Shown: positions 6,648-20,057 of the stretch, piece by piece
Position numbering within the stretch: position 1 is the stretch's first letter
Layout: every line of letters starts with the position of its first letter
From: an uncultured archaeon
GTDB lineage: Archaea; Iainarchaeota; Iainarchaeia; Iainarchaeales; CSSED10-239
Assembly (NCBI GenBank): GCA_964496765.1
Contig: CAZCAP010000013.1
Span: 1-21,558 of the forward strand
Reading direction: 5' to 3'
DNA length: 21,558 nucleotides
The notes under the pieces: model-generated
The model's input: the letters and a program-made list of their open reading frames with translations, nothing else
What the model was told of the DNA's origin: nothing
The model's database searches: none
Translations under genes and position numbers: made by a program

Positions 6648-8312
6648 ATGGCAGAAGATATAACGCACACAAATGAAAACACACTTGAAATTGATGAAGA
6701 AGAATTTAATGATCTTGGTAAATCCATAGAACTTAAAACACTTGCTGGACCTCTTAGATCATTAAAGTATCTTAATGAGTTTAGAGTAGCCCTAGCTAAC
6801 CCCATTAAAATACAAAAAAGTATATTACATGAAATTCTTAAAAAAAATAAAAAAACCAACTATGGAAAATTGTATGATTTTGCACACATTAAAACAATTG
6901 AAGAATACCAAACAAAAGTTCCATTGATTACCTATGAAGACATAATTCCATTTATTCAAAAAATAAAAGATGGAGAACAAAACATATTAACAAAGGATAA
7001 GGTAATTTTTCTAGCAACCACCTCAGGAACCACATCACACGTTAAACTAATTCCAGTAACAAAAGACAGAATGAAAAACTTCAAAAGAGAATTATATCTT
7101 TGGAGTGTGTATGTTCTTAAGGATCATTTAAATGTGACTAAAGGAAAGACATTGTATTTTGCTGGACCCTATATTGAAGGAAGAACCAGCGCAGGAATTA
7201 TCTGTGGAAGTATATCCGGATATCTAATTGCAAAAGCACCTTGGTATGTGAAAAGTAAGGTTGTTATTCCATCAGAAACATATAATATTTTTGATTTTGA
7301 TAAAAAAAGTAAAGAAATTGCAATAAACGCACTCATAAGTAACATAACCCAATTTGCGTTTGCATCTCCCATTGAAGCAATTCTTTTTTTAGACTACGTT
7401 GCAGAACACAAGGAAGAACTAATAATCGAACTTGAGAAAAAAGGAGAGGAAAAAAGAGCAAAAGAACTTAGAGAACTTTCTTCTTTTAGACCAATAGATA
7501 TCTGGCCTAATCTTTGTTTAATTGGATGCATTAAATCAAAGTTTAACTTACATTATCTTGATACTTTAAAAGAAAAAATAGGAAAGGATATTGAAATTAG
7601 AGATCCTGGTATATATGCTTCTGAAGGAAGATTATCCCTTGGTCTTGAAAAAGAAGGGATTGCAGGAATAATTCCTGCACACGTAACTTTTTTTGAATTT
7701 ATTGAAAAAAGAGAAAACCAAAAGGATAGAAATCCAATAACAATTGATAAGCTTGAAGTTGGAAAAAACTACGAAGTAATAATCACAACAACAGAAGGTC
7801 TTTATAGGTACAGAATGGGAGATATTGTTAAGGTAACAGGATACAAACATAAACTACCATTAATTGAGTTTGTTGATCGTGATAATTATCTAAACATAGC
7901 TGGAGAGCTTGCACATGAAAATATATTAATTTCAATAATGTATAAGGTAATTGAGGAAATTGAAATAAAAATTAAATCGTTTACATTCTTACCATATATT
8001 AAAGACCCAAGCAAGAAGCCAAGATATGAAGTTTTGATTGAACTATTTCCTGAAAGCCAGTTAGATGATGAACTTGCAATTAGATTCAAAGAACTTCTTG
8101 ATAAAACTCTAAAAGAATACATCTCTGATTATAGGCAAATGAGAGAAGAATTTGGAAGATTGGATCCACCTGTATTATCAATTGTGAAGCAGGGTGGCTA
8201 TGATGAGTTTGATAAAAAGAGAATCACTGGTGGAGGGCAACCAAAACCAATACATTTATCAAAAACAGAAAAATTCAGAGATAATTTTGAAATAATCAAA
8301 ATCTATGAGTGA
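6648..8312 (+). CDS. GH3-family acyl-acid amido synthetase-like adenylating enzyme
   Basis: 554 aa. The three GH3 (ANL-superfamily) motifs are in order: ATTSGTTSHVKLIPVT, GIYASEG, GLYRYRMGDIVKVTGYKHKLPLIEFVDR (compare plant GH3 SSGTS…K.MP, YASSE, YRVGD…V.GF.N..P.F.F). Confidence 0.85.
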   Translation: MAEDITHTNENTLEIDEEEFNDLGKSIELKTLAGPLRSLKYLNEFRVALANPIKIQKSILHEILKKNKKTNYGKLYDFAHIKTIEEYQTKVPLITYEDIIPFIQKIKDGEQNILTKDKVIFLATTSGTTSHVKLIPVTKDRMKNFKRELYLWSVYVLKDHLNVTKGKTLYFAGPYIEGRTSAGIICGSISGYLIAKAPWYVKSKVVIPSETYNIFDFDKKSKEIAINALISNITQFAFASPIEAILFLDYVAEHKEELIIELEKKGEEKRAKELRELSSFRPIDIWPNLCLIGCIKSKFNLHYLDTLKEKIGKDIEIRDPGIYASEGRLSLGLEKEGIAGIIPAHVTFFEFIEKRENQKDRNPITIDKLEVGKNYEVIITTTEGLYRYRMGDIVKVTGYKHKLPLIEFVDRDNYLNIAGELAHENILISIMYKVIEEIEIKIKSFTFLPYIKDPSKKPRYEVLIELFPESQLDDELAIRFKELLDKTLKEYISDYRQMREEFGRLDPPVLSIVKQGGYDEFDKKRITGGGQPKPIHLSKTEKFRDNFEIIKIYE

Positions 8313-8324
8313 AGTGAATCTATT

Positions 8325-9440
8325 ATGAACATATTAAAATTACCCAAAATGAAAAAAAAAGATTATACAAAATATTTTTCAAATGATTATTTTGAAGCAA
8401 GAGATAAATTCATTAATCAAACAATGGAAAAAGGAATGCAATTATCTTCTGAGGAAATAATTGATGGACTTACCTGTGATATTGCAATTTCAGAAACTAA
8501 AAAAAAAGATAAGCTTTTAATATTTGTATCAGGAACCCATGGTGTTGAAGGATACATTGGTTCTGCGTTTCAATTAATGTTTCTTGATAGATATTTTGAT
8601 AAATTAAAAGAAAGTACATCCATTATGTTTATTCATGCGCTAAATCCATATGGATTAAATAATAATAGAAGAGTAAATGAAAATAATGTGGATATTAATA
8701 GAAACTTTTGTGAAGATTTTAATAATATTAAAATAAATCCAAAAATATTAGAAATAATTAAAACAAATGAAAAAATATTTGTTTCTGGGAATCCTAGAAA
8801 AAATAGATTATATGAAAATTATAAATTATATACAACCATATTAAAGTCAGTTATAAAAAATGGAATTGTACAGGCTGTTGAGGCTGGAGTAGTAGGACAA
8901 AATCTATACCCAAAAGGAGTAAACTATTCAGGAATCGCTCCAGAAAAATCTAATGAAGTATTTTCAAATGTAATTTCTAAAGTTACAGAAGGTTATAGTG
9001 AAGCAATATTAATTGACCTGCACACAGGAATAGGAAGAAAATATGAAATGAAAGGATCTACCTATCATCCAAAGAACTCTGATGAATTTAAACTGTGTAA
9101 AAAAATGGTTCACACACTTGCAAGCCACACTGGAATACATATATACAACACATATGCTCTTGGGAAAGGATTTTTAAGATCAACAAAAGCTAAAAAAAAT
9201 TATGAAATTCTTGTTGAGTTTGGAACCATATCAGATATTTCAAGCACATTATCTGCAAATTATTTAACACACCTACTGGTTGTAGAAAATCAAATTACAT
9301 TCTATGGTCCTACAAAAAAATTAGAGCGCATTAGAAAAAAAATGAAAAAAGCCTATTATCCACAGGAAACACTCTACAAAATGTTTTTGTCTAGGCAAGT
9401 AAACAAAATTGGAAAAAGATTATTAAAAATATGTAATTAA
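8325..9440 (+). CDS. M14-like zinc hydrolase (DUF2817 / succinylglutamate desuccinylase-aspartoacylase-like)
   Basis: 371 aa. HxxE zinc motif in SGTHGVEGYIGS, third His in IDLHTGIG, plus HALNPYG and NNVDINRNF, typical of this subfamily as I recall it. It starts 12 nt after the GH3 stop. Confidence 0.72.
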   Translation: MNILKLPKMKKKDYTKYFSNDYFEARDKFINQTMEKGMQLSSEEIIDGLTCDIAISETKKKDKLLIFVSGTHGVEGYIGSAFQLMFLDRYFDKLKESTSIMFIHALNPYGLNNNRRVNENNVDINRNFCEDFNNIKINPKILEIIKTNEKIFVSGNPRKNRLYENYKLYTTILKSVIKNGIVQAVEAGVVGQNLYPKGVNYSGIAPEKSNEVFSNVISKVTEGYSEAILIDLHTGIGRKYEMKGSTYHPKNSDEFKLCKKMVHTLASHTGIHIYNTYALGKGFLRSTKAKKNYEILVEFGTISDISSTLSANYLTHLLVVENQITFYGPTKKLERIRKKMKKAYYPQETLYKMFLSRQVNKIGKRLLKICN

Positions 9441-11971: not shown

Positions 11972-12721
11972 CTATAATTTTAATGTTCTTCTTGGTTTTG
12001 GCTTTCGTTCAACCTTTTTTATGGGTTTTGGTTCTTTGTTTGGAACAAAGGCTTTCTTTAGATGCTCTTCAAATCTAGTTATTATCTTTGCTGTTCTTGG
12101 TTTCTTTGATGATAGAATATATATTTTTTCATCAAAATACATGTTTCTTACTGTCCCATACACTCCAAGCATATTAGTATAATGGTTAATTCTTATTTGT
12201 GACATTCTAAGTTCATGTTTAATATCTTTTATTTTTCCAGTAAGTTCGTTTTTGTGAGTAGAGGTGAGAAATTGGCTCTCCAGTATTTCTAATTGCTTTT
12301 CAAGTCTTATTTCTTCTTTTTTAAAAACGCCTCTAGTTTCCTTCCATCCTTTTATCTCATGGACCAATGATTCATTAAACTTCAATTCATAGCCTTGCTT
12401 AATAAAAGGGGTTGATGCAAAAATTAGTGCTTCAAAAACAGGCTCAGTCCATGGTCTTTCATACCTGGATGTACTTTCACCAAGTTTAACCCCCTGTACT
12501 AGCCCAATTTTTATATTCTTATTTTCAACAAAATAGTTAACAACACCTATTGGTTCATTTTTATAATAGGTTACAAGCATAACTTCTGATGGTCTATGTA
12601 CATGATAGGTATCACCAACAGGAAACTTCCAATCAGTTAATGCTTTTATTGATACGTCCTTTGGGTGTGGTGTACTAATTATTATGTTTCTTATATTTCT
12701 TGCAACATTCACTTTATTCAT
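11972..12721 (-). CDS. Hypothetical protein (249 aa): globular N-domain, coiled-coil middle, Lys/Pro-rich basic tail
   Basis: Last gene of the rnhB operon, starting 7 nt after the upstream stop. Coiled-coil-like EEIRLEKQLEILESQF…IKDIKHELRMSQIRI. Tail PNKEPKPIKKVERKPKPRRTLKL. I recognise no family. Confidence 0.55.
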   Translation of the reverse strand: MNKVNVARNIRNIIISTPHPKDVSIKALTDWKFPVGDTYHVHRPSEVMLVTYYKNEPIGVVNYFVENKNIKIGLVQGVKLGESTSRYERPWTEPVFEALIFASTPFIKQGYELKFNESLVHEIKGWKETRGVFKKEEIRLEKQLEILESQFLTSTHKNELTGKIKDIKHELRMSQIRINHYTNMLGVYGTVRNMYFDEKIYILSSKKPRTAKIITRFEEHLKKAFVPNKEPKPIKKVERKPKPRRTLKL

Positions 12722-12728
12722 AGATATC

Positions 12729-13184
12729 TTATTTTATCTCAATCTTTAATTCAAGTATGTTATTATTGTGTGTAACTTCTAAACTTTCTTTTTTAACTGG
12801 GATTTTAAAATGAAATTCTTTATAGAAGGAAATATCATTTCCTGCAATTATTAAAACATTTCTATCCTCTTCAATATCAAATACAAGATTATTTATTGAA
12901 TAGGGTAGAAAAAAGGTTAAATAAAGATATTTATCTTCAACAACTATGGAATCAAGATCTTCATACACTTCTGTGAAAATGTCACCCATTCCAATTCCAT
13001 TTAATTCATCCATAATATCATCTGGTTCTTTCATAAACTGAATATTCATTGAAACAGGCATATCCTTATTTAACTTTTTGAATTCTAAAAGGTTTTTAAA
13101 AACCTGTTTTATGGACTCATCAATGAAATCCATGTTCTTCTTTATATTGTTCTTTTTTGGTTCAGATGTGTTTTTTTCAATCAT
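12729..13184 (-). CDS. Divergent alpha-crystallin-domain (Hsp20)-like protein
   Basis: The C-terminal 75 aa, IVVEDKYLYLTFFLPYSINNLVFDIEEDRNVLIIAGNDISFYKEFHFKIPVKKESLEVTHNNNILELKIEIK, follow the ACD pattern (d.y.i.~~lPg…di.v.ve.~~L.I.g……r.f.lP..v….i.a.~.nGvL.i.i.K). ATGA overlap with rnhB. The match is by pattern only. Confidence 0.45.
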   Translation of the reverse strand: MIEKNTSEPKKNNIKKNMDFIDESIKQVFKNLLEFKKLNKDMPVSMNIQFMKEPDDIMDELNGIGMGDIFTEVYEDLDSIVVEDKYLYLTFFLPYSINNLVFDIEEDRNVLIIAGNDISFYKEFHFKIPVKKESLEVTHNNNILELKIEIK

Positions 13185-14278: not shown

Positions 14279-14905
14279 TTATTTATTATCAACATCTTCA
14301 AAAGAAGTTAATTTTCTAAATTTAGGCGCATCAGATTCTTTGTCCTTATCATCTGTTTTTGGTTCAGAAGTTCCAGAACCAAGGTCAACAAGAGTAGTTG
14401 CTTCTGATTCCTTTACAATTTCATCTCTTCTAACTTTTCTTTCCTCGTCTTTTACATTATCAATTGTGTTATCAATCACAAGTGATTTCTTTTTCTCAGA
14501 AACAGCAAGTGGTTCTGTAATATTTTCTACAATTAAAGACATGTCCTCGTGAGCCTTTTCTTTGATTGGTTCTGGTTCTTTCACAAAGGTTTGCGGTTTA
14601 ATTATTGGAGCTGGCTTAATTTGTGGAGCAGTACTTCCAGGAACAAACGTATTTGTAACATTGGAAGTAGCTTTAGGAATATCTTTTGATGGAATAATTT
14701 CTTTTTTACTTAAAATTAATCCAAATACAAGATACTTAAAGATCATAAACAAAAGAATAAAAGATACTAGAAAAGTAATTATTAGTAAAGCAATTATTGG
14801 CAATCCAAATAAAGGATTAGTTGATGCATTAAAATATGCATAAATGGTTCCTATCATAGCCAATACAAAGGATATTATTATTGAATTAAAATCACTTTTT
14901 TTCAT
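14279..14905 (-). CDS. Membrane protein with two N-terminal TM helices, a Pro-rich linker and an acidic C-terminal region
   Basis: 208 aa. TM spans IIISFVLAMIGTIYAYF and IIALLIITFLVSFILLFMIF. Linker PGSTAPQIKPAPIIKPQTFVKEPEPIK. The tail is rich in D/E/K. No family recognised. Confidence 0.55.
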   Translation of the reverse strand: MKKSDFNSIIISFVLAMIGTIYAYFNASTNPLFGLPIIALLIITFLVSFILLFMIFKYLVFGLILSKKEIIPSKDIPKATSNVTNTFVPGSTAPQIKPAPIIKPQTFVKEPEPIKEKAHEDMSLIVENITEPLAVSEKKKSLVIDNTIDNVKDEERKVRRDEIVKESEATTLVDLGSGTSEPKTDDKDKESDAPKFRKLTSFEDVDNK

Positions 14906-15027
14906 TATAAATCACGTTTATTTTAATTATTAATATAGCTTCAAACTATTTATAAATGGTAATATACTATAAAATATATATTGAATACATTAAAAAAACT
15001 TATTATTTCAAAAAACGCTGATAAGAT

Positions 15028-15798
15028 ATGCAAATTAATAAAAATGAAGTGCTAAAGATAACAAAAGAAAAGATAAAAGAGGAATTAACATCCCCTGATC
15101 AGAAAATCATAGCATTATCTTTGCTTTCAGAGAAAATACCAAATAATCTTAATGAATTATTCGAAGCACTAAGAATAATTACTGATCTTGAATATCCTAT
15201 GCTTGATTCTATTCTATCCATTAAAGAATATTGTTTAGTTTATAATCTAGAGGAAATAAATGATAAAAGTCTTGAAAAAGTTGGATTGGATAAAAAAAGA
15301 ATTAACCAAATCACGACTATTGTAGATTCTGAAGTTGGAATTAAATTAACAGATAAGGAAAGAAAATTAACTAAATCCCTTTCAAGCAATATACTTAACC
15401 TAATTGAAATTAAAGAAGCATTAGCAAAGGATATTGAAAAAATATTAGTGGAAACCTACCCTTGTTTTACAAAGATTGCAAGCCCACAAATAGCAACAAA
15501 AATGCTAACTATTGCAGGTGGGGTATCAAGGCTTTCAAGATTTCCAGCATCAACAATTCAACTTCTTGGATCAGAGAAATCTTTTTTTAAAGCTCTTGCC
15601 CAAAACAAGAACACTCCTAAGTATGGGGTTCTTTTCAATCATCCGCTTATTATTTCTCTTCCTGCTAAGCAGAAAGGAAAGATTGCAAGAATAATTGCAT
15701 CTAAGATAGTTATTGCAATCAAGTCTGATCTTGCTGGAAAAGATATATCTAAAGAACTTCTTGAAAAAATAAATTATAAAATTAAAAATACAAAGTGA
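15028..15798 (+). CDS. nop5: Nop5 (Nop56/58)-family C/D-box RNP core protein, short form (NOSIC + NOP domains only)
   Basis: IAGGVSRLSRFPASTIQLLGSEKSFFKAL, TPKYGVLFNHPLI and KGKIARIIASKIVIAIKSD are the hallmark NOP-domain motifs. At 256 aa, the PASTIQ motif is already at about residue 173. Same operon as fibrillarin. Confidence 0.85.
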   Translation: MQINKNEVLKITKEKIKEELTSPDQKIIALSLLSEKIPNNLNELFEALRIITDLEYPMLDSILSIKEYCLVYNLEEINDKSLEKVGLDKKRINQITTIVDSEVGIKLTDKERKLTKSLSSNILNLIEIKEALAKDIEKILVETYPCFTKIASPQIATKMLTIAGGVSRLSRFPASTIQLLGSEKSFFKALAQNKNTPKYGVLFNHPLIISLPAKQKGKIARIIASKIVIAIKSDLAGKDISKELLEKINYKIKNTK

Positions 15799-15802
15799 TT
15801 AT

Positions 15803-16597
15803 ATGGGAAAAATAGCAAATCCTAGATCCAAACCAAAAAAGTTTGGAATGGAAAGAGTACAGCAAAAAATAATCAATAGAAAATTAAAAAATCCAGATAT
15901 TAATAAACGTCAACAAGCAAAACTATTAAATTGTGAGTTCACTGAAAAATTTGCTGGAGGAAGTGATCCAAGAAAATATTCAAGAGGTAGAGGATATCAG
16001 GAATATAATCACATGATTCAATTTCTTAGCCAGAGTTCAGAGTTCAAAACAAAAAGTATATTACATATGCTTGCAGAATATTCGAAGACTCATCATAAAA
16101 AAGTTATAAAGATTCTTGATGAGGGTGCAGGGAGAGGAGCCTTCCTAACAGGATTAAAGGACATGTGGGGAACATTTAAAAAGATTGAAGGCGTCAACTC
16201 AAAACTCGAAACAACTGCAATAGTTCTTGATGTGGAAGATTTAAAACGAACAAAAATAGATCACGCATATGGGGGAGATGTAAATGGATATGTTCCTAAA
16301 GAAAAATTTGATTTCATATTTTCTGTTTTTGGAGGTTTTACATATACAACTCCTAAATTACAAAGAGAAGTTCTACTAAAGCACCTTTATTCTCTTGAAA
16401 AAGGAGGCTATGGCTTTTTTGGATTTTCTTCAGAACACAAAAAAGAATATACTGATATTTTTGTTAGAAAACTAGAAAAAATAGGATTTAAAGCAGAATA
16501 TAAAGATTATAATAATAATCAGCATAAAGAAACAAGAGCAAAATTTATTGAAGAAAACCTACCACGACAATATTTAATTGTTAAAAGAATAAAATAA
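15803..16597 (+). CDS. Class I SAM-dependent methyltransferase with a Lys/Arg-rich N-terminal extension, inserted between nop5 and flpA
   Basis: 264 aa. Motif I ILDEGAGRGAFLTGL, acidic beta-2 end VLDVED, GGDVNGYVP, motif IV-like FDFIFSVFGGF, LEKGGYGFF. N-terminal about 60 aa: MGKIANPRSKPKKFGMERVQQKIINRKLKNPDINKRQQAK. It starts 4 nt after the nop5 stop and ends 8 nt before the flpA start. Confidence 0.7.
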   Translation: MGKIANPRSKPKKFGMERVQQKIINRKLKNPDINKRQQAKLLNCEFTEKFAGGSDPRKYSRGRGYQEYNHMIQFLSQSSEFKTKSILHMLAEYSKTHHKKVIKILDEGAGRGAFLTGLKDMWGTFKKIEGVNSKLETTAIVLDVEDLKRTKIDHAYGGDVNGYVPKEKFDFIFSVFGGFTYTTPKLQREVLLKHLYSLEKGGYGFFGFSSEHKKEYTDIFVRKLEKIGFKAEYKDYNNNQHKETRAKFIEENLPRQYLIVKRIK

Positions 16598-16605
16598 GAT
16601 AAAAT

Positions 16606-17217
16606 ATGAATACAATAAAAAATTTAATTATTAAAGATGGAATGATTGGAACCATTGATCTAAATTCAGGAGAAAAAAGGACATGGGATCCTAATCACTC
16701 AAAGATTGCTGCTGGAATTAAGAAAGGCATTAAAGAACTACCAATTAATGAAAATTCAAATATTCTTTATCTTGGAGCAGCAGAGGGATATACAATATCT
16801 TATATTTCAGATATTGCATCCAATGGATTAGTTGTTGGAACTGACATTTCTGCACATTCCATGCAAAAGCTTTATCTTCTATCCCTTGAAAGAAAGAATC
16901 TTATTCCTTTTTTGGGAGATTCTAATAAACCGGAAGAATTTGAAGATATTTTTGGAAAAGAAAAGTTTGATTTAATTATTCAAGATATTGCTCAAAAGAA
17001 TCAAGTAGAAATATTAGTTAAAAATTCAAATCTTTTTTTAAAGGAAAAAGGATATGTTCTATTAAGTTTAAAACTATCAGCACTAACGCAAAAGAAGGAT
17101 TCAAATCTAAAAGAAGATCAACTAGAGTTATTTAGAAAACATTTTAACATAGTAGATCAAAGGAAGCTAGATCCATTTGAAAAGAAACACATGCTCCTGC
17201 TTGGACAAAAAAAATAA
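16606..17217 (+). CDS. flpA: Fibrillarin-like rRNA/tRNA 2'-O-methyltransferase
   Basis: 203 aa. WDPNHSKIAAGI, ILYLGAAEGYTISYISDI (canonical GAASGTT reads GAAEGYT here), IIQDIAQKNQVEIL, LDPFEKKHMLLLG. Confidence 0.9.
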   Translation: MNTIKNLIIKDGMIGTIDLNSGEKRTWDPNHSKIAAGIKKGIKELPINENSNILYLGAAEGYTISYISDIASNGLVVGTDISAHSMQKLYLLSLERKNLIPFLGDSNKPEEFEDIFGKEKFDLIIQDIAQKNQVEILVKNSNLFLKEKGYVLLSLKLSALTQKKDSNLKEDQLELFRKHFNIVDQRKLDPFEKKHMLLLGQKK

Positions 17218-17224
17218 TTTAAGT

Positions 17225-17410
17225 TTATCTGGTTCTAAAATAATTTTCTATAGTCCTATCATATGTTTTTTCTGCTGTTTTTGTAAAATAACAAGCAGGA
17301 AGTTCATTATTCTTTCTATGATAGGCAATACATTCACAACAAATTCCTTTTCTTTCACAGCGGTAGGTGCAGGGACAATCTTTTAGATTAACTTCTTTTT
17401 TACAATCCAT
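17225..17410 (-). CDS. Cys-rich mini-protein (DUF6485-like)
   Basis: 61 aa with 8 Cys: [40 protein letters not shown]. This pattern matches what I recall of the DUF6485 family (C.C.….C.R.G.CCEC..YHR…ELPACYF). It starts 15 nt after the CaCA gene stop. Confidence 0.6.
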
Positions 17411-19189: not shown

Positions 19190-19300
19190 TTAAAAGTCAT
19201 CTTCTGCATCAGATTCTTCTTCAGAATCTTCAAAATCAGAATAATCATCATCATCATCGTAAACTTCATCTGTTGGTTTTTTATTAAATTCTTGTGGCAT
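19190..19300 (-). CDS. Candidate hyper-acidic mini-protein (36 aa), below the ORF-track cutoff
   Basis: My own translation: MPQEFNKKPTDEVYDDDDDYSDFEDSEEESDAEDDF, with 18 of 36 residues D/E. Strong SD aggaga 6 nt upstream of the ATG. Same strand as, and upstream of, the cyclophilin-CaCA operon. Confidence 0.35.
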   Translation of the reverse strand: MPQEFNKKPTDEVYDDDDDYSDFEDSEEESDAEDDF

Positions 19301-19457: not shown

Positions 19458-20057
19458 TTAAAGTAATTGAAGAATAATATCATATGTGATAGCATCCTCT
19501 TTATAAGAAAGATGCACCCCCACCTTGTTTCCTTCTTTAAGAGTTATTACTTGTAGATTATATTTGTTTACAAAATTTAAAATCAGAGATAATGGATGAT
19601 TATACTTATTTACACCATACTTTTCATATACCATTTTACCGGTTGCTGAATAAGATAACAAGATATAACCCTTTTTTTTAAGAGAAGAAGTAGCTTTTTT
19701 AAAAAGTAAATCAAGTTCATCTACAGTTAGATATTGAATTAGTCTAGCCATTATAATTATATCATATTTTGAAGTAAAAGAATAATCAAGACAAGATATT
19801 TTCTTGAAATTAACTAAAGATAGTAGCTCTTTTGGAATTTCTTTTAAAAAATCAAGATCAACAATATCTATTGCATCTACAAAGCACCCTTTTTTTGCAA
19901 AGTAGATTGTATTTCTTCCATTTCCACAACCAATATCAAGAACGTTACCTGATTTTGGGAAGAAATTTTCAGCTAGTTTAATTACTTCGCTTGGTTTTTC
20001 TGTATCTACTAAAAAACCATTAGAATATGCTTTTTCCCAGTCATTCATAATAATCAT
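19458..20057 (-). CDS. Class I SAM-dependent methyltransferase (TehB-like)
   Basis: 199 aa. Motif I VLDIGCGNGRNTIYFAKKG followed by VDAIDI (acidic beta-2 end), YDIIIMARLIQYL, LKKKGYILL. Confidence 0.8.
   Translation of the reverse strand: MIIMNDWEKAYSNGFLVDTEKPSEVIKLAENFFPKSGNVLDIGCGNGRNTIYFAKKGCFVDAIDIVDLDFLKEIPKELLSLVNFKKISCLDYSFTSKYDIIIMARLIQYLTVDELDLLFKKATSSLKKKGYILLSYSATGKMVYEKYGVNKYNHPLSLILNFVNKYNLQVITLKEGNKVGVHLSYKEDAITYDIILQLL

Follow-up and report, generated by a model that had tools for sequence, protein, structure and literature searches.

This report concerns a stretch of 21,558 nucleotides (hereafter the window; contig CAZCAP010000013.1 of GenBank assembly GCA_964496765.1) from an uncultured DPANN archaeon of the phylum Iainarchaeota, and in particular three consecutive genes that encode Nop5, a class I S-adenosylmethionine (SAM)-dependent methyltransferase and fibrillarin (flpA). 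Our preferred reading, to which we give a probability of about 0.6, is that these genes form a real, co-transcribed operon with two independent events behind it, the disappearance from Nop5 of its N-terminal domain (NTD) and the insertion of the methyltransferase gene, and that the methyltransferase is a stand-alone enzyme and no substitute for the lost domain. The window is AT-rich archaeal DNA with a GC content of ~28%, and the three open reading frames (ORFs), all on the + strand, span 15028-15798 (256 aa), 15803-16597 (264 aa) and 16606-17217 (203 aa), with spacers of 4 nt between nop5 and the methyltransferase gene and of 8 nt between the latter and flpA, exactly as listed in a preliminary description made from the sequence. 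The same gene order was seen again in independent assemblies and metagenomes (loci L001, L005-L010 and L090), so the three-gene arrangement is no assembly artefact, and we infer that the genes are co-transcribed as an operon.

The Nop5 ORF (15028..15798, +) matches the Nop domain PF01798 over profile positions 2-227 of 228 (E 2.9e-39, 135 bits against a cutoff of 25.4). Its match to the NCBIfam equivalog aNOP56 (NF011121) covers positions 124-377 of 417 only and scores 176.9 bits against a curated cutoff of 452, below which it therefore falls, and positions 1-123 of the aNOP56 model are unmatched. In a phmmer comparison with Protein Data Bank (PDB) sequences, residues 9-253 align nearly gap-free to residues 122-372 of Sulfolobus solfataricus Nop5 (E 2e-33), leaving just 8 residues before the coiled-coil (~residues 9-145, aligned to Sulfolobus 122-~260), which is followed by the Nop (L7Ae/K-turn-binding) domain (~residues 145-253). 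With its start at residue 122 of the Sulfolobus protein, this alignment confirms the domain loss: the fibrillarin-binding N-domain is absent from the window's Nop5, in which the NTD Pfam domains PF21572 and PF08156 find no match. An AlphaFold model built with 24 homologues (pLDDT 89) is all-helical without beta strands, which speaks against the N-terminal residues folding as a canonical Nop5 N-domain. In the model the coiled-coil is intact, with long helices at residues 23-55 and 109-143 (pLDDT >90), and the protein should be able to dimerise. The preliminary description was thus right that the N-domain is missing, a point on which alignment, profile and model agree, but not that little room is left for the coiled-coil, since residues 9-253 align and both long helices are in place; the landmarks that it had picked out, LRIITDLEYPMLD beginning at L48 and PASTIQ at 173-178, are both present.

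Compared with archaeal Nop5 proteins of known structure (S. solfataricus 3ID5 and 3PLA; Pyrococcus furiosus 2NNW), the window's protein aligns over the whole length of the coiled-coil and Nop domains, conserves the PASTIQ-LG-EK motif and is likewise encoded near flpA; it differs in lacking the whole N-terminal fibrillarin-binding domain of ~120 aa, in an aNOP56 score well under the cutoff (177 versus 452 bits) and in the extra gene that separates nop5 from flpA in the window. In Foldseek searches the model superposes on the C-terminal domains of the Sulfolobus and Pyrococcus proteins, with TMq 0.85 and TMt 0.60 against full-length Sulfolobus Nop5, and its best target-normalised matches are the engineered NTD-deleted proteins 3ICX (Sulfolobus Nop5 135-380; TMt 0.89) and 3NVI (a Nop56/58 shortened at its N-terminus, bound to L7Ae and box C/D RNA; TMt 0.86). 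These share its architecture, and 3NVI shows that an NTD-deleted Nop5 still binds L7Ae and C/D RNA. However, both are laboratory truncations, used because they are unable to recruit fibrillarin, whereas the truncation in the window is natural, conserved across the clade and paired with flpA. In the C/D ribonucleoproteins (RNPs) characterised in archaea and eukaryotes, the NTD of Nop5/Nop56/Nop58 is the only known means of tethering fibrillarin to the guide RNA, and its deletion in vitro is the standard means of abolishing fibrillarin recruitment.

A coiled-coil and a Nop domain without an NTD are also found in Prp31 of the U4 small nuclear RNP (snRNP; 2OZB, 3SIU), which binds the composite surface of K-turn protein and RNA, and human Prp31 matched our model with a TMt of 0.75-0.79. 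The window's Nop5 is nonetheless nearer to archaeal Nop5 (phmmer E 2e-33) than to Prp31 (E 1.4e-13), does not have the C-terminal extension of Prp31, and belongs to an archaeal operon with fibrillarin rather than to the eukaryotic U4 snRNP. It is a Nop5 by sequence and Prp31-like by architecture, and the loss of the NTD in Prp31 and in the Nop5 of Iainarchaeota is most simply regarded as independent and convergent.

The missing domain was sought elsewhere at the locus and in related genomes. Upstream of nop5 lies an AT-rich spacer of 122 bp without an ORF (14906..15027), which ends at the start of a divergent membrane-protein gene (14279-14905, -), so no Nop5 NTD is hidden there, and a split gene or frameshift concealing it is ruled out, in line with the preliminary description. 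The spacer measures 116-124 bp in the relatives L001, L005, L009 and L010 and presumably holds the operon promoter. No NTD-like ORF was found in the window or in ~25 related loci. A hidden Markov model (HMM) made from 76 NTDs, applied with low sensitivity to the window and to short-Nop5 and related Iainarchaeota loci, gave a best E-value of 1.3 for a stand-alone NTD, and a database search with the NTD profile, also of low sensitivity, returned 7 matches, the 5 inspected being Thermoplasmatota-like fragments or frameshifted genes. On the 978-kb contig that carries P0013, the short Nop5 alone turned up in the Nop5 homologue search. Small ORFs on the same strand 5' of nop5 in relatives, considered as a detached NTD, proved to be ribosomal protein L35Ae, which lies directly 5' of nop5 on the same strand in L012, L014, L015, L017, L021, L023 and L024. 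The conserved proteins of 151 and 249 aa encoded upstream in the window were likewise discarded as NTD candidates, having neither a Pfam match nor similarity to the NTD.

The truncation extends well beyond the window. The Nop5 homologue search recovered ~90 clusters of 217-273 aa, none of them with an NTD Pfam domain, the next matches being Nop5 proteins of 297-398 aa, many with PF21572 or PF08156. From a scan taking one genome per species we annotated 80 loci with an ORF/HMM script (HMMs for Nop5, the methyltransferase and fibrillarin). Short Nop5 (244-273 aa) stands beside short fibrillarin (197-229 aa) at ~25 Iainarchaeota loci, their genomes bearing the labels Candidatus Iainarchaeum, ainarchaeum or Diapherotrites, while Aenigmarchaeota, Thermoproteota and others combine an NTD-bearing Nop5 of 326-405 aa with a fibrillarin of 217-235 aa. 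A 299-aa Nop5 at L026 (1966-2865) was set aside as an artefact, the L35Ae ORF being joined to nop5 through a masked stretch of N. Loss of the NTD is therefore common to the whole Iainarchaeota clade. At ~20 of its loci flpA follows nop5 directly, adjacent or overlapping (by 4-17 nt in L011, L016, L018-L020, L023 and L034), with no gene between; one of these loci is that of the complete genome of Ca. Forterrea multitransposorum, of the same phylum. That so many insert-free loci combine an NTD-less Nop5 with a short fibrillarin indicates that the loss predates the insertion and is independent of the methyltransferase. The preliminary description had called the variation undescribed, and in the searchable literature on Nop5, fibrillarin and small RNPs in DPANN archaea, Diapherotrites, Iainarchaeota and Nanoarchaeota we found no NTD-less archaeal Nop5 described; a 2024 preprint on IS110/Nop5 evolution mentions NTD loss for eukaryotic Prp31 alone.

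Fibrillarin has changed as well. The flpA product (16606..17217, +) matches PF01269 (E 1.5e-48, 165 bits against a cutoff of 27) and exceeds the cutoff of NF003276 (185.7 bits against 113), in the latter case over profile positions 39-225 only, and it aligns to residues 42-225 of Methanocaldococcus jannaschii fibrillarin (E 4e-44). Like the archaeal fibrillarins of known structure (M. jannaschii 1FBN, P. furiosus 1PRY), it has the full catalytic domain, the K-D-K triad (K33-D127-K156, equivalent to M. jannaschii K58, D150 and K179) and the SAM-binding motifs. In contrast to them, it lacks ~25 N-terminal residues, those of the 'NLxPGxxVYGE' hairpin, its motif I reads GAAEGYT (residues 57-63) instead of GA(S/A)(S/A)GTT, 'KLSALT' takes the place of 'KxRSIDV', and Val77 replaces the Nop5-contacting Tyr (Y102 in M. 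jannaschii and P. furiosus, Y105 in S. solfataricus). The short length of 203 aa and the GAAEGYT variant, both remarked on in the preliminary description, thus hold. In all archaeal complexes this Tyr nucleates a conserved aromatic cluster with helix alpha6 of the Nop5 NTD (PMC7962484).

We aligned fibrillarins in two groups according to the neighbouring Nop5, 27 beside a short Nop5 (2 of which come from truncated long-Nop5 loci) and 23 beside a long one. The position of Y102 is aromatic in 23/23 of the long-Nop5 group and Tyr in only 10/27 of the short-Nop5 group, where Ile and Val are common. The N-terminal hairpin is deleted in 23/27 short-Nop5-group fibrillarins, motif I carries Glu in 24/27 and Tyr in 22/27, GAAEGYT is clade-wide, and in core Iainarchaeota 'KxRSIDV' is swapped for 'KLSALT' or 'KTTAIS'. 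The catalytic K-D-K is retained in every fibrillarin aligned, in both groups. Intermediate states occur in deeper-branching genomes: L083 and L085 combine a short Nop5 with a fibrillarin that keeps the hairpin, reads GAAEGTT and has Ile at the Tyr position, while in L088 the Nop5 is short and the hairpin gone, yet 'KARSVDV' is kept. These suggest an order in which the NTD was lost first and fibrillarin remodelled afterwards. Purifying selection acts strongly on nop5 (dN/dS 0.08-0.2) and on flpA (0.06-0.12): the system is remodelled and not decaying.

The gene between them (15803..16597, +) encodes, as the preliminary description had recognised, a 264-aa class I SAM-dependent methyltransferase with the motif I ILDEGAGRGAF (residues 104-114), and it is conserved at this place within the subclade. 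Its Pfam matches, to Methyltransf_25/23, are generic and below threshold (E ~0.01-0.02; best 16.5 bits against 27), and its best NCBIfam E-value is 0.027. Residues 1-60 form a basic helical N-terminal extension and the Rossmann-fold core begins at ~residue 100; in the AlphaFold model (pLDDT 73) strands and helices alternate from residue 101, preceded by two low-confidence basic helices. A helix-turn-helix had been thought possible in the N-terminus, where no such family matched and the two predicted helices are of low to moderate confidence. Foldseek returned a probability of 1.0 for many class I methyltransferases, all generic, among them BioC, TehB, NodS, MnmM and a putative rRNA methylase. 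With such enzymes (Methyltransf_23/25/31; 8X8J BioC, 3M70 TehB, 3OFK NodS, 8H27 MnmM, 3EEY) the insert shares the Rossmann fold, the GxGxG motif I and the 'D-x-I-F-S' motif of strand 4, and it differs from them in its family-specific basic helical extension and a 'W..R.Y..YN' pre-motif.

An exhaustive profile search outlined a wider family of 211 representatives at 50% identity, mostly of 240-280 aa, with the motifs 'W..R.Y..YN', 'ILDDGAG.G.FL..LK', 'D.IFS..G...Y', 'LLKY.YSL.KGG' and 'KRGF'; across 40 members G108, G110 and G112 vary little or not at all. The members match generic Methyltransf_23/25/31 models only, the family profile reaches at best an uncharacterised methyltransferase among PDB sequences (E 1.5e-4), and no named methyltransferase family in Pfam, NCBIfam or the PDB was reached at a curated cutoff or by a specific structural match. 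The family is an uncharacterised, fast-evolving archaeal one.

Among 5.8 billion clusters the window's methyltransferase has five close homologues (42-62% identity). All of those with readable context have a Nop5 of 255-256 aa on one side and a fibrillarin of 203 aa on the other, as does the copy in L010; the flanking spacers in this subclade are 4-16 nt long, and the N-terminal motif KKFGME..Q is invariant among the operon copies. Relatives outside the operon are found in other company. Of the nearest, P0127 is flanked by the gene of a class I aminoacyl-tRNA synthetase of 950 aa and by that of a RelA/SpoT-TGS protein, and GCA_037441475.1 has two tandem family copies 5' of class I aminoacyl-tRNA synthetase and RelA/SpoT genes, while its own nop5-flpA pair (L011) overlaps and carries no insert. 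Tandem duplicates 5' of class I synthetase and RelA/SpoT-TGS genes were noted in Iainarchaeota at L095 (6001-7594) and L093, and the linkage of synthetase, methyltransferase and RelA/SpoT recurs in L091, L092 and L095. Members further removed have deoxyhypusine synthase and Sec61-beta, or HerA, in their vicinity, and at no other locus examined does nop5 have a family member within 6 kb. Neighbour joining places the operon copies in one monophyletic group (82/100 bootstraps), sister to the synthetase-linked copies, which points to a single insertion event in a narrow subclade. Between L001 and L090, at comparable dS, Nop5 and fibrillarin are each 89% identical and the methyltransferase 46%; the dN/dS of the latter is 0.2-0.6, and it is evolving 3-5 times faster than the genes on either side.

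Other archaea have unrelated genes between nop5 and flpA, namely a DUF429 gene (L032, 6732-7331), a NUDIX gene (L040, 6737-7162), a 117-aa ORF of unknown nature (L086, 6672-7025) and a gene for a 184-aa coiled-coil protein (L088, 6807-7361), so the junction is one that accepts passenger genes. The coiled-coil protein of L088, from a short-Nop5 Iainarchaeum, could be an adaptor candidate in its own right. Unrelated class I methyltransferases of 224-266 aa, Methyltransf_25-like, also stand downstream of flpA in two members of the insertion subclade, directly after it in L009 (4797-5597), giving a four-gene string nop5-MT-flpA-MT2, and 113 nt past it in L005 (5383-6057). The window instead has another, TehB-like methyltransferase gene at 19458-20057 (-), in common with L010, and the neighbourhood of flpA seems to collect methyltransferase genes.

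We reconstruct the course of events as follows, the domain architecture, the distribution among genomes, the order of the two events and the rates of evolution being demonstrated by the data. In an old, clade-wide first event, Nop5 lost its NTD to become a Prp31-like protein of coiled-coil and Nop domain that is still expected to form dimers and to bind L7Ae/K-turn RNA. Fibrillarin changed in step, losing its hairpin, adopting GAAEGYT and relaxing the interface Tyr with the K-D-K kept. The two products would still cooperate, fibrillarin being recruited by a non-canonical contact, be it with the coiled-coil or Nop domain, with the guide-target duplex or as a transient association. In a second, recent event limited to one subclade, a methyltransferase of the ~260-aa family with the basic helical N-terminus was inserted once between nop5 and flpA, where it would share the expression of the operon and most likely acts by itself, with RNA or some other part of the translation apparatus as its putative target. 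From gene adjacency or overlap and strong purifying selection we infer that the Nop5-fibrillarin partnership probably continues. The basic N-terminus, together with the company of translation-related genes in which the family is found, weakly suggests an RNA or translation-related substrate, and the methyltransferase is most likely a co-expressed stand-alone enzyme. With many lineages lacking the insert and its relatives found elsewhere, compensation for the lost domain is unsupported, and even within the window's own subclade we give it a slim chance. The preliminary description had tied the loss of the NTD to the extra enzyme, a link that gives way before the ~20 insert-free loci, the synthetase-linked relatives, the faster evolution and the other genes at the junction; of the three roles that it had considered, that of a stand-alone methyltransferase co-regulated with the RNP fits best.

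Several observations weigh against this account. First, the insert has been kept between the two partners with a dN/dS <1 and spacers of 4-16 nt while the subclade diverged to 42-62% identity, a retention that a functional tie to the RNP could explain as well. Second, profile and fold searches with the methyltransferase return generic class I methyltransferases only and no pointer to a substrate. Third, the canonical tether is lost from Nop5, but a distant NTD gene or a full-length Nop5 paralogue is possible, the searches having covered loci and with low sensitivity. Fourth, the case for a continuing partnership is drawn from gene order and conservation. Lastly, the window holds no L7Ae gene, and no C/D small RNA (sRNA) was seen in the window or the clade loci, the control loci being equally blank. 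In the window, an Rfam scan at gathering threshold found tRNA-Val alone, and a regular expression for the C/D boxes matched once, at 19209-19257, inside a coding 36-aa acidic ORF, which we regard as a chance match; the same expression gave 0 matches in 298 kb of clade loci but also 0 in 571 kb of control loci.

How fibrillarin is engaged in these archaea bears directly on the alternatives. A new mode of fibrillarin recruitment in which the methyltransferase has no part approaches even odds, and is considerably likelier than the version with it. The most serious competitor to our account holds that the C/D system of Iainarchaeota is no longer a canonical guide RNP, so that Nop5 would be a Prp31-like K-turn-RNP scaffold or an rRNA-processing chaperone, fibrillarin would be untethered or guide-free, and the adjacency of their genes would be historical. 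It would account for the absent tether and the relaxed interface Tyr, it agrees with the architecture of Prp31, which recruits no methyltransferase, and no C/D sRNA showed up in the 298 kb of clade sequence, though control loci are blank too. We consider it unlikely, however, in view of a nop5-flpA pair that is still adjacent or overlapping (4-17 nt) and strongly constrained and of a fibrillarin that retains its K-D-K and SAM motifs; moreover, the fibrillarin of characterised archaea is barely active unless Nop5 is present. Even guide-independent activity requires the fibrillarin-Nop5 heterodimer (PMC5558902).

The methyltransferase could alternatively be a new stoichiometric subunit, an adaptor that tethers fibrillarin to the NTD-less Nop5 through its basic N-terminus or its Rossmann core. 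Throughout the subclade its gene lies exactly between those of the two partners, with spacers of 4-16 nt; purifying selection acts on it (dN/dS 0.2-0.6), KKFGME..Q is preserved in all operon copies, and fibrillarin has Val or Ile at the NTD-contacting Tyr position in all members of the insertion subclade. The same replacement is, however, found in insert-free lineages, and ~20 loci manage with an NTD-less Nop5 and a short fibrillarin without this methyltransferase nearby. An adaptor would also not be expected to evolve 3-5 times faster than its supposed partners (46% versus 89% identity) or to have its closest relatives linked to a tRNA synthetase and RelA/SpoT instead of nop5, and the protein bears no resemblance to the Nop5 NTD, all of which makes this role quite improbable. 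Taken more broadly, an NTD-less Nop5 C/D-type RNP with an undescribed fibrillarin interface and the methyltransferase as an integral third protein, be it adaptor or second catalytic subunit, is very unlikely. Least probable of all is a second catalytic subunit that brings another methylation chemistry to the same guide-selected targets, for which the intact SAM-binding motif I (ILDEGAGRGAF), the conserved Rossmann core and the embedding in the operon would speak, but which meets the same objections from distribution and rate as the adaptor, has no recognisable docking element, and belongs to a family whose unrelated contexts (synthetase/RelA/SpoT, deoxyhypusine synthase, HerA) point to an activity independent of the RNP.

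Some other features of the window complete the picture of the locus. The gene for ribosomal protein L35Ae (PF01247; 13993..14256, +) is a conserved neighbour upstream, and the window also encodes ribosomal protein L15e, RNase HII and a TtuA-like enzyme. RNase HII forms an apparent operon (11972-13184, -) with the two conserved Pfam-less proteins of 249 and 151 aa; the 151-aa ORF and RNase HII share a 4-nt overlap, all three genes are syntenic in L005-L008, and a 150- or 154-aa ORF lies likewise 5' of RNase HII in L001 and L009. A convergent gene for a Cys-rich DUF6485 protein of 61 aa (17225-17410, -), kept in L009 and L010, starts 8 nt past the flpA stop. Downstream of a cyclophilin gene is an extremely acidic 36-aa mini-ORF (19190-19300, -), MPQEFNKKPTDEVYDDDDDYSDFEDSEEESDAEDDF; L001, L005 and L009 have small genes, of 39-47 aa, called at the corresponding place. 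At 6648-9440 (+) a gene of the GH3 family (acyl-acid amido synthetase-like) precedes one with DUF2817 (succinylglutamate desuccinylase/aspartoacylase-like), a pair unusual for a small DPANN genome.

For the biology of these archaea the methyltransferase matters less than its position might suggest: it shows that the nop5-flpA junction accepts passengers, and it draws attention to an uncharacterised, fast-evolving archaeal family. Of greater interest is the way in which fibrillarin gets to its substrate once the NTD tether is gone, as a lineage that has discarded this domain and yet keeps nop5 and flpA adjacent and constrained would have either a novel mode of assembly or an uncoupling of scaffold and enzyme. 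The deeper-branching L083, L085 and L088 offer stepwise intermediates for the co-evolution of Nop5 and fibrillarin, and the Iainarchaeota as a whole would provide a natural and independent parallel to the step that is thought to have yielded Prp31 from a Nop5 ancestor.

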